Source: Pseudomonadota bacterium (GTDB lineage: Bacteria; Pseudomonadota; Gammaproteobacteria; Comchoanobacterales; Comchoanobacteraceae). Taken from it: a DNA stretch of 24,000 nucleotides. A program made the position numbers and the translations under genes. The notes under the pieces were generated by a model. That model was not told where the DNA came from, made no database searches, and saw only the letters and a list, made by a program, of their open reading frames with translations. This document shows positions 7,391 to 16,799 of this stretch, one piece after another (positions within the stretch are counted from its first letter, which is position 1; every line of letters starts with the position of its first letter). The DNA is taken from contig JAYYPW010000008.1 of NCBI GenBank assembly GCA_036128855.1, positions 288,571 through 312,570 on the forward strand. The letters run 5' to 3'.

Positions 7391-8737
7391 ATGACCCATC
7401 ACGTTCTAGCCGGGTGCGGCAGTTTTATGGCAGGCTTATCCTCAATTATGGCTGAAATGAATATAGAAGTTAGAGCGTACGACAAAACTTTCCAGCCACC
7501 CATGCGCAATCAACTAGAGCATGCCGGTATACAGATGTTACAAGGTTACGATTACAATACATCAATACCGGATAAAGATACGCTGATAGTAGGCAATGCT
7601 ATACGTCGCGGCAATCCAATGTTAGAAAGGCATTTACAAGAAGGTAGGCCTGTAATGAGTGGCCCACAATGGCTGCATGATGCAGTATTACAACATAGAA
7701 AGACCATTGCAGTCAGTGGTACACATGGCAAAACCACAACAACGGCTATGATGGCATGGGTGTTAGATTATTGTGAGCAGAATCCGGGTTTTCTCTTGGG
7801 GGGGATTCCGTTAAATTTTCAGTCATCTGCAAGACTAGGTAAAGATACGTGGTTTGTAATAGAAGCAGATGAATATGATACCGTTTACTATGATAAGCGC
7901 CCTAAGTTTTTTTACTATCCAGCTCATTGTCTCATTGTTAATAATTTAGAATTCGATCATGCTGATATTTACCGCGATCTAGCAGATATCGAAAAGCAAT
8001 TTCGCCACTATCTACAAACATTAAAACCAGGAGCTTGGGTAATATATCCAAAAGAGGCTAAAAATATTGCTCAGCTAGTCGAAGCTGCCGGTTGGGTGCG
8101 TGGATGTCCAGTATCTTGCTTAGAAAATGGGGACTGGCGTATTGAGGCGCAGGGTATTGATTGGTCCAAATTCAATATTGTCGATGATCAAGAGAAAAGT
8201 TATATGGTAGACTGGGAATTGTTTGGACAACATAACGCTGAAAATGCATTGATGGTATTTACTGCAGCAGTAAAAATGGGCATGGACCCAGAAAAGGTTG
8301 TCCGTGGGCTTTCGCTATTTAAAGGTGTAGCACGAAGAATGCAAAAAATTGGCGAGTCTCATGATAACAAGGTTGTATTTGATGATTTTGCACATCATCC
8401 AACTGCTTTACAAAAGGTGATTGAAGCTACACGAGCAAGATTTTCTATGCAGAGACTGGTTGTGTTTTTACAACTTAGTAATTTTACCCAACGCGAGGGT
8501 GTTATGTGGGAAAGATTACAAAAGGCCTCTGAGGGTGCAGATTTAATATTATTATTACAAAATGATTCACAATTTCCTTACGCAAAATTTGTCAACGGGC
8601 ATAAACGACCAGTTGAGTTAATACCATCTATTTTTACAAAAGAGGATATTCGTAAGCACATAAAGCCGGGTGATCATGTCTTAACCTGTAGCAGTCGCGA
8701 TTGTCATAGTATACATCAGGCTATATTGCAGCCATGA
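7391..8737 (+). CDS. mpl: UDP-N-acetylmuramate:L-alanyl-gamma-D-glutamyl-meso-diaminopimelate ligase (murein peptide ligase)
   Basis: Mur-ligase P-loop GTHGKTTTTAM, plus Mpl-characteristic blocks MSGPQWLHD, NNLEFDHADI and DDFAHHPTA. The length of 448 aa is close to E. coli Mpl. Confidence 0.92.
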   Translation: MTHHVLAGCGSFMAGLSSIMAEMNIEVRAYDKTFQPPMRNQLEHAGIQMLQGYDYNTSIPDKDTLIVGNAIRRGNPMLERHLQEGRPVMSGPQWLHDAVLQHRKTIAVSGTHGKTTTTAMMAWVLDYCEQNPGFLLGGIPLNFQSSARLGKDTWFVIEADEYDTVYYDKRPKFFYYPAHCLIVNNLEFDHADIYRDLADIEKQFRHYLQTLKPGAWVIYPKEAKNIAQLVEAAGWVRGCPVSCLENGDWRIEAQGIDWSKFNIVDDQEKSYMVDWELFGQHNAENALMVFTAAVKMGMDPEKVVRGLSLFKGVARRMQKIGESHDNKVVFDDFAHHPTALQKVIEATRARFSMQRLVVFLQLSNFTQREGVMWERLQKASEGADLILLLQNDSQFPYAKFVNGHKRPVELIPSIFTKEDIRKHIKPGDHVLTCSSRDCHSIHQAILQP

Positions 8738-12777: not shown

Positions 12778-13254
12778 ATGAAAAAATTAAGCCAAAACAA
12801 TATTTTACCTTTTTGTCTGACTTCTTTGCTGTTAATAGCGGGCTGTGATAACAGTCGTGATTCAGATAATGAGTCTGCCGGTAGACTACTTGGTGGTATA
12901 GCAGGGGCAGCGATCGCAAACGATCGTACTGATGGAGACCCTTTAGGAACAGTGATAGGTGCAATGGCAGGTAGTTACATTGGTGGTCAGATTGGTAGAG
13001 ATATTGATCAAAGTAATCGCGAGCGTATGGCCATAGTGCTTGAAAAGCAGCCATCCAATAAAACAAGCAAATGGATAGATCCTGATACGGGGGTTGTCTA
13101 CGAAATGAGGCCAGCAGCTGCCTACAGAAATAAACAAAGAATCTGTAGACCATTCACACTCAAACTACATGACCCAGATGGATCAGGAGCAGATTATATG
13201 CACAAAGGTATAGCATGCCGCGGCGATGATGGCACCTGGGAGGTTGTAAAGTAA
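12778..13254 (+). CDS. Outer-membrane lipoprotein, glycine-zipper / RT0821-Lpp0805-type surface antigen
   Basis: Lipobox LLLIAG|C. A glycine-zipper stretch (GGIAGAAIA...GAMAGSYIGGQIG) is followed by the C-terminal pattern W-x-D-P-x-T-G...C-R-P-F...G-x-A-C-R-x-x-D-G-x-W, as remembered for 17-kDa surface antigen-like proteins. Confidence 0.7.
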   Translation: MKKLSQNNILPFCLTSLLLIAGCDNSRDSDNESAGRLLGGIAGAAIANDRTDGDPLGTVIGAMAGSYIGGQIGRDIDQSNRERMAIVLEKQPSNKTSKWIDPDTGVVYEMRPAAAYRNKQRICRPFTLKLHDPDGSGADYMHKGIACRGDDGTWEVVK

Positions 13255-13324: not shown

Positions 13325-14620
13325 ATGCGCGTTCAATTAAGTGGTGATGCACTCGTCTTTTTAGTTGGGTGCTCAGGATCTGGTAAATCGACCTTTTGCG
13401 AGACTTATTTTCAGCCGTCTCAAGTTGTTTCCTCAGATCAATGTAGAAAGCTAGTCTCGGATAGAGAAGAAGAGCAGCAAGCGACACAAGATGCCTTTAC
13501 CATTCTTTACCAAATAGTTGAGAAAAGAATACGGCGAGGTTTATTTACGGTAATAGATGCAACAAACTTAGAAAAATCGGTAATACAGAAAATCAAAAAG
13601 TATGCAGAGGTTTTTAAAAGGAGTTTACATGCATTTGTTTTCTCACTGCCACTAGAGCAATGTTTGACGTGGAATAACAAAAGACCGAAGCGACAAGTTG
13701 TATCGGAGGTAATTTATCGTCAGCATAAAGCACAGCAAAACGCACTGGAATATATTATCGCAGAAGAGATTACGCACACAGTACTTACGAGCGTTGATGC
13801 GATAAATGCAATAGAAATTGAAGTCAAGGGTACACAAATCTACACCCAAGCAGAAAAGCACATTATCGATGACGGGCCCTTTGATATCATTGGAGATGTA
13901 CATGGGTGTTTGGATGAGTTAAATGATCTACTTAGTAAGCTAGGCTATGTAATAAATAGGCAAGATGGATGTGAACATATGCATCATCCGCAGCGAAGAA
14001 AAGTGATTTTTGTGGGAGATCTTGTGGATAGGGGGCCCAATTCGGTCGGGGTGATTAATTTAGTACGTCAAGCGGTAGCAGATGGTGTTGCTTATGCAAT
14101 TTTAGGCAACCATGATGAAAAATTGAAAAAAAAGCTCAGAGGTAAAAAGGTAAAAGTGCGGCATGGGCTCGAGACCACGCTAGCTGAGTTAGAGCGAGTA
14201 CCCGAGTCTGAAAGGCAGTCGATACTCAATTTCTTAGTGGGCTTACCTTATTACAGTATTTTTGCAGGGGGGAAGTTGGTCGTTGCACATGCGGGGATAC
14301 TAGAAAAAGACATCGGTGAAATATCGGATCGGATTAAGCGTTTTTGTTTATACGGTGATATAACCGGTAAAACCAACGAATTTGGTTTTCCGATAAGAGG
14401 GAATTGGGCCAAGACATACCAAGGGGAAGGCCTTATTGTGTATGGTCATACGCCAGTAAGGCAGGTACATTGGGAGAATAATAGTGTAAATATTGACACG
14501 GCCTGTGTTTTTGGAGGGGCACTTACAGCATTGCAATACCCAGAAAAAAAGTGTGTGTCAGTCAATGCACATGCGAGCTATGCTGAAGATATACGTTCCA
14601 AATCCGCGGACCAGTCTTAA
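13325..14620 (+). CDS. Polynucleotide kinase-phosphatase (Pnkp-like); P-loop kinase plus calcineurin-type metallophosphatase, no ligase domain
   Basis: N-terminal P-loop GCSGSGKST, then SSDQCR and IDATN, which are the kinase motifs of bacterial Pnkp. The C-terminal half has metallophosphoesterase motifs GDVHGC, GDLVDRGP, GNHD, VAHAG and GHTP. AGGA lies upstream of the ATG. Confidence 0.8.
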   Translation: MRVQLSGDALVFLVGCSGSGKSTFCETYFQPSQVVSSDQCRKLVSDREEEQQATQDAFTILYQIVEKRIRRGLFTVIDATNLEKSVIQKIKKYAEVFKRSLHAFVFSLPLEQCLTWNNKRPKRQVVSEVIYRQHKAQQNALEYIIAEEITHTVLTSVDAINAIEIEVKGTQIYTQAEKHIIDDGPFDIIGDVHGCLDELNDLLSKLGYVINRQDGCEHMHHPQRRKVIFVGDLVDRGPNSVGVINLVRQAVADGVAYAILGNHDEKLKKKLRGKKVKVRHGLETTLAELERVPESERQSILNFLVGLPYYSIFAGGKLVVAHAGILEKDIGEISDRIKRFCLYGDITGKTNEFGFPIRGNWAKTYQGEGLIVYGHTPVRQVHWENNSVNIDTACVFGGALTALQYPEKKCVSVNAHASYAEDIRSKSADQS

Positions 14621-14632
14621 AGTCAAACCTAT

Positions 14633-14661
14633 CGGGTAAGGCTGACTTTTACATTTACCCG
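14633..14661 (+). terminator. Hairpin just after the Pnkp-like stop (weak terminator candidate)
   Basis: CGGGTAA (14633-14639) pairs with TTACCCG (14655-14661) across a 15-nt loop. It is followed by TTATAAAAA, so there is no clean U-tract. Confidence 0.3.
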
Positions 14662-14867
14662 TTATAAAAACATCAGTTAACAAAGTAGAAAATGAATACT
14701 ATTAGGTGATTGGCGCGAGTATGAGATTGCATTTTGTGGTGCATACAAAGCAGACAGGGGCAAAGTGTAAAATAAAAAGGCTGAGCAAGCACAATGATAG
14801 TTATAGAAACGTTTGACTATGGGAAATCCGCGTAGTAAGTTAAGATAACATTAACAGGAATTATACC

Positions 14868-16799
14868 ATGTGGTTACCAATCATTATTTGTAGTTTATTT
14901 ATGCAACCATTCGCACAAGAGCTTGAAGAAGTGGTAGTAACAGCAGAAAAAAGAGAGGAGTCTCCTCTAGATCTCCCTGTGTCAGTCTCATCTATAGATC
15001 TATCTACTATAGATCGAGTAGAAATTCTGCGAGGTCCCGCATCAGCAGTCTACGGCACGGATGCTGTAGCTGGAGTTAATAATATTAGTATAAGAGACAT
15101 AAGAGGCATGTCTGGCTCTATTAACTCAGTAGAGTCAGGAACTACATTGGTACCTCCCACTCTTTTTGATCTCGTGAATAGACCCTGGTTAGAATCAAAA
15201 TTTTTGGACGTAACGCGTATACAAGTTTTAAGAGGGCCTCAAGGAACACTCTACGGCAGGAATTCCAAAGGTGGAGTCATAAATCTGATCACAGAAAAGC
15301 CCTCTGATTCTGAATTATCAGCTAAGTATGATTCTAATTTCGGAGCTTCGACACAGTCGGGTACATCTGGCCAAGGTTTGAGTTATAATACAACGCGTGA
15401 GTTTGATAGCAACAATACGAAAATCAGATTCGAGCTTTTAGATAGGAATTTTGGTAACTACAACGTACCAAATGGAACATTTGCTGATAATGACATCGAA
15501 GTTAGAAACTCAGGTTTTGATAATACAACAGTATCTTTTGGTACGAATGTAGATATAAATGGGAAAAGTACCCTAATGATGGGGCAAAAGACCGATTATA
15601 GTTATGGCTTTCCTAGTTTCGTGGAGGGTCACGCAGAAGGATCTATAGAATCTTTATTGTTTCGGGGGGAGCTGGCAGCAGGAGAGTTACTTGATGCAAT
15701 CAATGTTGATGCCTACAACAACAAGATAACCAAAACCGAGCATTCTACTTCCACTGGATCTTTGACGAAGACATTATTTTTAACTGAGCAACGTGGGGTA
15801 GATATGTCCACAGGTTTTAGCAGTAATAATGTAGACCAGACTATATATTTTCGTTTTGTATCAGGCAACCAATCTATCACCAGCCCCAATACAGACGATC
15901 CTATGTCACTGGTAAAACTAGATGCTAACTTGTTTGGTTATAGTGCTAGTAGAGAGATGAATAATCTTATTGTGAATGTTGCGATGAGTTATGGAAGCAA
16001 CGATTATTCACCTGAGGGAACAGATGAAGTTGACTTTAACAGCACAAGCATCTCTACAAGCTTGAGCTACACTGTCTCTGATGAACTTTCTGCGACCCTA
16101 AGTCTTGCTTCTATCGAAAGAGCACCTTCTCCAGTAGAACTTTTTATGAACGGAGAAAATCATACGATTAATCGTATTATTGATGGTAATGCTAACCTTA
16201 AAAAAGAGAAAGACAAGCCGGCTATTCTAACACTCCAGTACGATCAAGGCACTATATATGGCTACGCTGCATACTTTCAAAATGATGTAGATAACTGTAT
16301 TTATTTACAAGATGAAAATGAGCATGAATTCTTATCCGTAACGGCAGCAGATGTCCTACAGAAAAATGCAACGTTCGAAGGCTATAAAGTGGAGCTAGGC
16401 CGAACCTTCAATGTTGCAGGCGGTGAACTAGGTGTAACACTTGGTCGAGATGCTATGACAGGTGAATTTACAGATGGAGCTAACGTTCCAAGGATAGTTC
16501 CTGCCAGGAATATATATAGTTTCACATATAGTGTTTTTGATATTAAATCAAATCTCACGCTCACCGATGTTGCAGCACAAAATGATGTTGCAACCAACGA
16601 AACAACCACAGCTGGCTTTAAAATGCTTGATTTTAGTATTAGAAAGGACTTCAAATTAAGCAGGGGATCTGATCTCGATGTAACTGTTTTCGGACGCAAT
16701 CTTCTAGACGAGGTAGCAAGAAATCATTCATCGTTCGTCAAGAACGAAGTACCACTGCCAGGTAGAAACTTTGGGTTGAAATTAAGCTTCAGCTTCTAA
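14868..16799 (+). CDS. TonB-dependent-receptor-like outer-membrane protein with an atypical plug
   Basis: Features are a short signal-like N-terminus (MWLPIIICSLFMQPFAQE), a TonB-box-like EEVVVTAEK, the plug signature RIQVLRGPQGTLYGRNSKGGVINLITEKP, a long Ser/Thr/Asn/Gly-rich beta-barrel region, and a C-terminal GRNFGLKLSFSF ending in Phe. An in-frame stop at 14841 fixes the start at 14868. Confidence 0.8.
   Translation: MWLPIIICSLFMQPFAQELEEVVVTAEKREESPLDLPVSVSSIDLSTIDRVEILRGPASAVYGTDAVAGVNNISIRDIRGMSGSINSVESGTTLVPPTLFDLVNRPWLESKFLDVTRIQVLRGPQGTLYGRNSKGGVINLITEKPSDSELSAKYDSNFGASTQSGTSGQGLSYNTTREFDSNNTKIRFELLDRNFGNYNVPNGTFADNDIEVRNSGFDNTTVSFGTNVDINGKSTLMMGQKTDYSYGFPSFVEGHAEGSIESLLFRGELAAGELLDAINVDAYNNKITKTEHSTSTGSLTKTLFLTEQRGVDMSTGFSSNNVDQTIYFRFVSGNQSITSPNTDDPMSLVKLDANLFGYSASREMNNLIVNVAMSYGSNDYSPEGTDEVDFNSTSISTSLSYTVSDELSATLSLASIERAPSPVELFMNGENHTINRIIDGNANLKKEKDKPAILTLQYDQGTIYGYAAYFQNDVDNCIYLQDENEHEFLSVTAADVLQKNATFEGYKVELGRTFNVAGGELGVTLGRDAMTGEFTDGANVPRIVPARNIYSFTYSVFDIKSNLTLTDVAAQNDVATNETTTAGFKMLDFSIRKDFKLSRGSDLDVTVFGRNLLDEVARNHSSFVKNEVPLPGRNFGLKLSFSF

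Follow-up and report, generated by a model that had tools for sequence, protein, structure and literature searches.

A ligase-less Pnkp kept as an independent gene in a reduced-genome gammaproteobacterium, probably an autonomous enzyme for healing polynucleotide ends

Bacterial Pnkp has so far been studied just within the Pnkp-Hen1 repair-and-immunize machine, and its active sites are known in detail from the Clostridium thermocellum (Cth) enzyme. In the kinase domain, Lys21, Ser22, Asp38, and Arg41 are each essential in their own right and Arg120/Arg123 form a redundant lid pair (PMC3902929), and in the phosphatase domain nine residues are essential by mutagenesis (Asp187, His189, Asp233, Arg237, Asn263, His264, His323, His376, and Asp392; PMC3675462). 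Here we describe a gene that encodes these two domains and no ligase domain, in a 24,000-nucleotide (nt) stretch of a genome of the Comchoanobacteraceae (Gammaproteobacteria; assembly GCA_036128855.1, contig JAYYPW010000008.1, positions 288,571 to 312,570 of the forward strand), hereafter the window. The 431-amino-acid (aa) product is a ligase-less variant of bacterial Pnkp, which probably retains both end-healing activities and acts as an autonomous enzyme.

A previous inspection of the letters alone (the sequence-only reading) had proposed a Pnkp-type kinase followed by a calcineurin-type phosphatase, and all of the motifs on which it relied (GCSGSGKST, SSDQCR, DATN, GDVHGC, GDLVDRG, GNHD, and GHTP) are present in the translation. 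Pfam places AAA_33 at residues 10 to 142 (76 bits) and Metallophos (PF00149) at residues 185 to 378 (56 bits), and the top matches in the PDB are the phosphatase domain (4j6o; E 3.7e-74) and the kinase domain (4gp6; E 8.5e-28) of C. thermocellum Pnkp. The NCBIfam equivalog model TIGR04075 (bacter_Pnkp) aligns its positions 3 to 422 of 851 with residues 3 to 424 (489 bits), a score short of its curated cut-off of 750 bits because nothing in the protein corresponds to the model's second half. The open reading frame (ORF) ends where the ligase domain is expected to start, as had been claimed, and the 247 nt downstream are indeed non-coding, with no ORF of at least 60 aa, no match to Rfam, and an unremarkable predicted fold (z = -0.5); neither PF16542 nor a six-frame hidden Markov model (HMM) search at E<=10 finds any remnant of a ligase domain in this spacer. 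An AlphaFold2 model built from 14 sequences folds both domains confidently (mean predicted local distance difference test score [pLDDT] of 80), and only the linker, residues 324 to 358, and the last seven residues are of low confidence.

The kinase half has the same residue numbering as CthPnk. Its Lys21, Ser22, Asp38, Arg41, and Arg120/Arg123 are invariant in our alignment, including the six-member clade to which the protein belongs, and the acceptor-strand contacts Gln51, Phe58, Thr80, and Val129, whose roles are described for the Cth enzyme (PMC3902929), are kept throughout that clade. With both catalytic and acceptor-strand residues of Pnkp in place, this is not a generic AAA or gluconate-kinase-like domain, and it is predicted to be a nucleoside triphosphate (NTP)-dependent 5'-OH polynucleotide kinase. 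The sole role of Cth Arg116 is pi-cation stacking on the base of the NTP donor (PMC3902929); this residue is Trp in the window protein and in its closest homologue (P0002) and Asn in the other clade members (P0003 to P0006), and Trp116, being aromatic, could retain stacking on the NTP base.

The phosphatase half is similarly intact, with the equivalents of all nine essential Cth residues (D191, H193, D232, R236, N262, H263, H322, H375, and D391) invariant and the beta13 strand also kept. His263 corresponds to Cth His264, described as a determinant of the ability to act as a 2',3'-cyclic phosphodiesterase (PMC3675462), and the domain is likely a Mn2+/Ni2+-dependent 2',3'-cyclic phosphodiesterase and 3'(2')-phosphomonoesterase. 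It is also conceivable that the protein no longer acts on polynucleotide ends, with a PrpE/ApaH-like phosphatase directed at dinucleoside polyphosphates or phosphoproteins and a kinase directed at a small molecule. The PrpE model does match at 260 bits, the clade shows changes in its acidic Cth-loop and at several conserved arginines, and it has a long stem in the tree (0.65 substitutions per site). We note, however, that 260 bits is below the PrpE cut-off of 340 and far below the 489 bits of the Pnkp model, which extends across both domains, so that the grouping with ApaH/PrpE considered in the sequence-only reading is not borne out; retention of the four acceptor-strand contacts, of the general base Asp38 with Arg41, and of His263 further argues against a change of substrate class, which we regard as distinctly unlikely.

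The Cth-loop is remodeled in this clade. In Pnkps from ten phyla it is a conserved acidic stalk beside the phosphatase site, and the roles suggested for it are an RNA clamp or movement of the healed 3' end to the methyltransferase or ligase sites (PMC3675462). The window protein keeps the length of the loop, and three of its acidic residues are replaced (Cth E350 by K349, D352 by N351, and D361 by N360), with K, N, and N at these positions in the whole clade; the other short Pnkp forms retain an acidic loop. Because this lineage lost both the methyltransferase and the ligase sites, a loop stripped of most of its charge is, we infer, consistent with the 3'-end relocation role.

No dedicated sealing or methylating partner was found in the genome, which spans 1.43 Mb in 14 contigs (92% complete; 38% GC) and was searched as a whole. 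Hen1 was not found, with just generic methyltransferase matches of at most 29 bits against a cut-off of 340, and the Pnkp ligase domain was found neither with PF16542 nor, in six frames at E<=10, with our own HMM of 109 full-length Pnkps. These searches also returned no RtcB, RtcA, Rnl2-type ligase, or ThpR/LigT. PF09511 (T4 Rnl1) has no match in the genome either, an absence that carries little weight because no control genome matched it. The lack of a Hen1 or Rnl partner, previously claimed for the locus, therefore holds for the assembly, and the accompanying suggestion of an unlinked ligase, RtcB or LigA, survives in its second half: RtcB was not found, LigA is encoded approximately 10 kb downstream of the kinase-phosphatase gene (about 640 bp past the window end), and an ATP-dependent DNA ligase is encoded on another contig (C2, as opposed to C8 for the kinase-phosphatase gene). 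Acting together, the two domains would convert 5'-OH and 2',3'-cyclic-phosphate or 3'-phosphate ends to 5'-phosphate and 3'-OH ends, and these could then pass to LigA or the ATP-dependent ligase, or to RNA-decay or tailing enzymes that need a 5'-phosphate and a 3'-OH.

The ATP-dependent ligase lies in a ligase-associated DNA damage response cluster together with an MPE endonuclease, an exonuclease, and the Lhr-Core helicase, and the kinase-phosphatase might be the end-healing step of this Lhr-Core/MPE/Exo/Lig system, making ligatable the DNA ends with 3'-PO4 (hence 5'-OH) termini produced by MPE. When the MPE of Pseudomonas putida cleaves single-stranded DNA, some of the ends carry 3'-PO4 and others 3'-OH, and none of the cluster's enzymes heals ends (PMC7826289); both the partial yield of 3'-PO4 ends and the missing healer favor such a role, as does the fact that all four cluster genes score above curated cut-offs. 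Of the order's 31 genomes, this is also the only one in which the TIGR04120 ligase and the kinase-phosphatase were found, although this shared uniqueness is weak evidence because the TonB-dependent receptor gene next to the kinase-phosphatase is equally unique. In addition, the two loci are on separate contigs, and a general pairing of short Pnkps with the cluster is unsupported in the Cytophagales, where TIGR04120 is present in none of the six genomes with a short form as compared with 66 of the 301 overall. Xth, which is known to remove 3'-phosphates in Escherichia coli, is encoded here, which also speaks against such a role; within the order, 30 of the 31 genomes have it, and Nfo was found in none. 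We therefore consider this DNA repair role unlikely. The idea that the kinase-phosphatase is a stand-in for a lost 3'-phosphatase was rejected, as Xth is encoded.

The sequence-only reading was correct that the gene stands alone, and this architecture is not unique to the locus. We retrieved approximately 160 loci from genome and metagenome collections; scans of these collections with very general patterns gave mainly full-length Pnkps (41 to 48% identical) and no members of the window's clade. About 130 encode a full-length Pnkp of ~850 aa, and most of these have a ~460-aa ORF directly upstream of pnkp. For two of these ORFs the identity as Hen1 was confirmed, and Hen1 is detected in most loci by an HMM made from the upstream ORFs. 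The apparent short matches are mostly truncated by contig ends, and some come from genes with frameshifts, where fragments of Hen1 and of the ligase are still present. True stand-alone genes of 422 to 452 aa are present in four metagenome loci (L133, L118, L162, and L104), with no Hen1 or ligase within 2 to 8 kb and no conserved neighbor, the flanking genes being unrelated. An open short frame (432 to 446 aa) is also present in 6 of 301 sampled Cytophagales genomes, four of which (G256, G099, G142, and G176) code for neither Hen1 nor a Pnkp ligase domain anywhere in the genome, and one of which (G192) carries a separate short copy in addition to a complete operon. The sixth (G320, C1:1889750-1893829) has a Pnkp-Hen1 operon in decay, in which the kinase-phosphatase frame of 445 aa is still open, frameshifts have broken the ligase domain into four pieces, and the C-terminal third alone remains of Hen1. 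A profile was run exhaustively against 1.84 billion cluster representatives, and ~65 to 70 of the best 150 are 390 to 460 aa long, some of which may be fragments, and the ESM Atlas contains several large AAA_33 plus Metallophos clusters without a ligase domain. Given these occurrences, the ligase-less layout is recurrent, and it arose repeatedly outside the window's clade.

The decay in G320 shows a route by which the window gene could be a leftover of a Pnkp-Hen1 operon with no function by itself. However, debris of a ligase or of Hen1 is absent from the window genome, several independent assemblies carry the ORF intact, the clade conserves every catalytic residue down to 54% identity, and a reduced genome of 1.4 Mb has retained the gene; we find a functionless relic extremely improbable.

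Retention is also evident from the phylogeny. When proteins of similar length are compared, the five nearest to the window protein are 54 to 79% identical to it and are all 418 to 446 aa long with the same end point, and no full-length or longer protein exceeds 49% identity. In a tree of 277 kinase-phosphatase regions, P0001 to P0006 form a clade of short forms only (support 1.0) on the long stem noted above, and the other short forms are polyphyletic, dispersed among the full-length Pnkps. The profile search gathers the whole clade in one 50% cluster (830 bits), with the next match at 438 bits. The short form is thus no one-off truncation and has been retained across a diverged clade. Intact copies 99 to 100% identical to the window protein are present in three other assemblies, and searches of the order's 30 other genomes and of 16 more from the class did not find the gene.

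The gene has a GC content similar to that of the genome, with no compositional sign of recent transfer. Orthologues of the window's mpl gene (74% identity) are on contigs of 25,754, 38,747, and 21,319 bp, and the contigs carrying the clade members P0003, P0247, and P0248 have identical sizes and the same sources; judging only from these three matches of size and source, the kinase-phosphatase gene appears to be linked to mpl in a sister lineage too. Because of the genome-like GC content and the matching mpl-bearing contigs, the gene has probably been inherited vertically without recent transfer. A phage or plasmid origin is unsupported, the phage matches being distant (26 to 32%); the plasmid matches for which an annotation is shown are all named polynucleotide kinase-phosphatase. 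One phage relative with both kinase and phosphatase is encoded by Lactobacillus phage Lb338-1 (FJ822135.1:17965-18885; 26% identity over residues 10 to 325) and is annotated as 'RNA ligase' in one record and as 'protein phosphatase' in the other. We also note that the similarity to P0002 is mosaic, with residues 241 to 431 being 97 to 100% identical, including the unconserved C-terminal tail, and residues 1 to 240 being 33 to 80% identical (kinase, 63%; linker, 40%). This suggests either recombination or replacement of the kinase half among close relatives, or chimeric assemblies.

A type IVB secretion system is present in the genome, as indicated by a clear DotH/IcmK gene (214 bits), and the window also contains a weak DotI/IcmL-like gene and several orphan genes, such that the organism is probably an intracellular, Legionellales-like bacterium. 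The kinase-phosphatase could accordingly be imagined, along the lines of the host context raised in the sequence-only reading, as an effector that Dot/Icm translocates and that modifies the ends of host RNA or DNA, an idea favored by these secretion genes and by the gene being lineage-specific within the order and situated among orphan and lineage-specific genes. The protein has no eukaryote-like features, however, its C-terminal tail is unconserved across the clade, and the same architecture is present in free-living Spirosoma and Fibrella and in other Cytophagales, making an effector role very unlikely. A broader version, in which the clade enzyme with its de-acidified Cth-loop and lost arginines has taken on a new job, either as end healer for the Lhr-Core/MPE/Exo/Lig cluster or as a secreted enzyme acting on host RNA ends, seems rather unlikely.

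Several observations weigh against the interpretation we favor, of an autonomous enzyme with both Pnkp healing activities. A set of 132 full-length Pnkps has 127 alignment columns with conservation of at least 95%, of which the six clade members all keep 94, and seven residues that are 98 to 100% conserved in the full-length proteins are replaced in the clade (Arg87, Arg116, and Cth His311, Asp315, Arg333, Asp352, and Arg405). Four of these (Arg87, Asp315, Arg333, and Asp352) are kept by all 46 of the other short forms, and the other three by most of them. Because residues so strongly conserved are replaced, the substrate preference of the clade enzyme may have shifted. Furthermore, no partner or conserved neighbor was identified for the gene, and no biochemical study of a ligase-less Pnkp was found in the searchable literature, which did not cover one relevant survey. 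We nonetheless think it probable that the gene derives from a full-length Pnkp through loss of the ligase domain and of the Hen1 partner, and that a small clade of gammaproteobacteria with reduced genomes and a type IVB secretion system has since maintained it as a gene in its own right.

Many lineages keep the healing half of Pnkp by itself as an intact gene, even one with a genome of 1.4 Mb, and end healing therefore seems to be useful without a dedicated RNA ligase, whether for DNA nick repair, RNA clearance, or some other job. The window's clade is also a natural experiment on the Cth-loop, which has lost most of its charge where there is neither a ligase nor a methyltransferase partner. 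The locus is of interest because a reduced genome has retained the gene and because the loop has been remodeled specifically in this clade.

The immediate neighbors are a lipoprotein gene and an outer-membrane receptor gene, as had been described (Table 1). The receptor matches the Plug model only at its last 33 positions (75 to 107 of 107), and none of the order's other genomes was found to have it. On the plus strand near the kinase-phosphatase gene there is no sigma-70-like promoter and no intrinsic terminator. Further downstream, zipA and ligA, which adjoin each other in E. coli, are separated by ~6.5 kb containing DotI/IcmL-like and ELM1-like genes, a minus-strand ORF, and orphan membrane-protein genes.

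Table 1. Coordinates of the ligase-less Pnkp gene, its parts, its neighbors, and related loci of the same genome (window positions unless a contig is given)
Feature	Position	Strand	Basis
Complete ORF, ligase-less Pnkp, kinase plus phosphatase, 431 aa	13325..14620	+	ORF translation, Pfam, TIGR04075, PDB matches
Polynucleotide 5'-kinase domain (predicted), residues 1-145	13325..13759	+	Pfam, PDB match, alignment
P-loop, residues 15-23	13367-13393	+	Within kinase domain
Poorly conserved linker, residues 146-183	13760..13873	+	Alignment; pLDDT drop at ~residues 170-175
Binuclear metallophosphoesterase domain, residues 184-421	13874..14587	+	Pfam, TIGR04075, PDB match, alignment
Cth-loop equivalent, residues 342-361	14348..14407	+	Alignment; pLDDT <50 here
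Non-coding spacer, stop codon to TonB-receptor gene, 247 nt	14621..14867	+	ORF, HMM, Rfam, folding searches
Glycine-zipper/17-kDa-antigen lipoprotein gene, neighbor	12778-13254		
TonB-dependent receptor gene, neighbor	14868-16799		
mpl	7391-8737		
zipA	17296-18084		
ORF in zipA-ligA gap	20119-21267	-	
LigA gene, outside window	C8:313214-315154		
DotH/IcmK gene, outside window	C8:229100-229846		
Ligase-associated DNA damage response cluster (PdeM/MPE, ligase, exonuclease, Lhr-Core), outside window	C2:108884-114733 (locus L167:3884-9733)		
ATP-dependent ligase of the cluster			TIGR04120, 626 bits, above curated cut-off
Helicase (Lhr-Core) of the cluster			TIGR04121, 927 bits, above curated cut-off
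Exonuclease of the cluster			TIGR04122, 433 bits, above curated cut-off
PdeM/MPE endonuclease of the cluster			TIGR04123, 190 bits, above curated cut-off

Among described systems, the full-length Pnkp of Pnkp-Hen1 is closest, with the same two N-terminal domains in the same order (42 to 49% identity to the window protein) and with all essential kinase and phosphatase residues, the Cth-loop length, and the beta13 strand in common. The differences are the absence from the window protein of the C-terminal adenylyltransferase/ligase domain (PF16542) and from its genome of Hen1, the mostly uncharged Cth-loop, the Trp at position 116, and the replacement of Arg87 and Arg405. PrpE of Bacillus subtilis and ApaH-type enzymes share a homologous metallophosphoesterase fold, and the PrpE model (NF010148) matches residues 186 to 421; PrpE is a single-domain protein of ~245 aa and, unlike the window protein, has no kinase domain.

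T4 Pnkp and the Pnkp1 of Capnocytophaga resemble the window protein as two-domain 5'-kinase/3'-phosphatases with no ligase domain; they pass ends on to a separate ligase, and Pnkp1, a homologue of T4 Pnkp, has Rnl and Hen1 as neighboring genes (PMC4411300). The T4 Pnkp phosphatase is a member of the DxDxT superfamily of acylphosphatases (PMC3592404), a fold different from the Metallophos domain (PF00149) found here. The three-component Pnkp1-Rnl-Hen1 system, which the sequence-only reading had brought in for comparison, is consequently not pertinent, because the phosphatase folds differ and the ORF is a shortened CthPnkp-type protein; the window gene also has no neighbors of the kind that adjoin Pnkp1. 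Mammalian and fission-yeast PNKP have a phosphatase of the HAD fold and an FHA domain, and the PNKP model TIGR01663 scores the window protein at 17.7 bits, with homology stopping at the P-loop kinase. These PNKPs are ligase-less kinase-phosphatases that restore 5'-phosphate and 3'-OH ends for separate DNA ligases (PMC5626526), and in that respect are functional analogues of the window protein.

The other ligase-less Pnkps (for example, in Spirosoma, Fibrella, Thiomargarita, and a Chlamydiae metagenome-assembled genome) are annotated as 'AAA family ATPase' or 'PrpE'. They have the same two domains, end ~10 to 25 residues past the conserved Tyr419, and have no Hen1 or ligase nearby, or genome-wide where tested. 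Most are close to full-length Pnkps and keep the acidic loop and the conserved arginines, whereas the window's clade is separate and long-branched.

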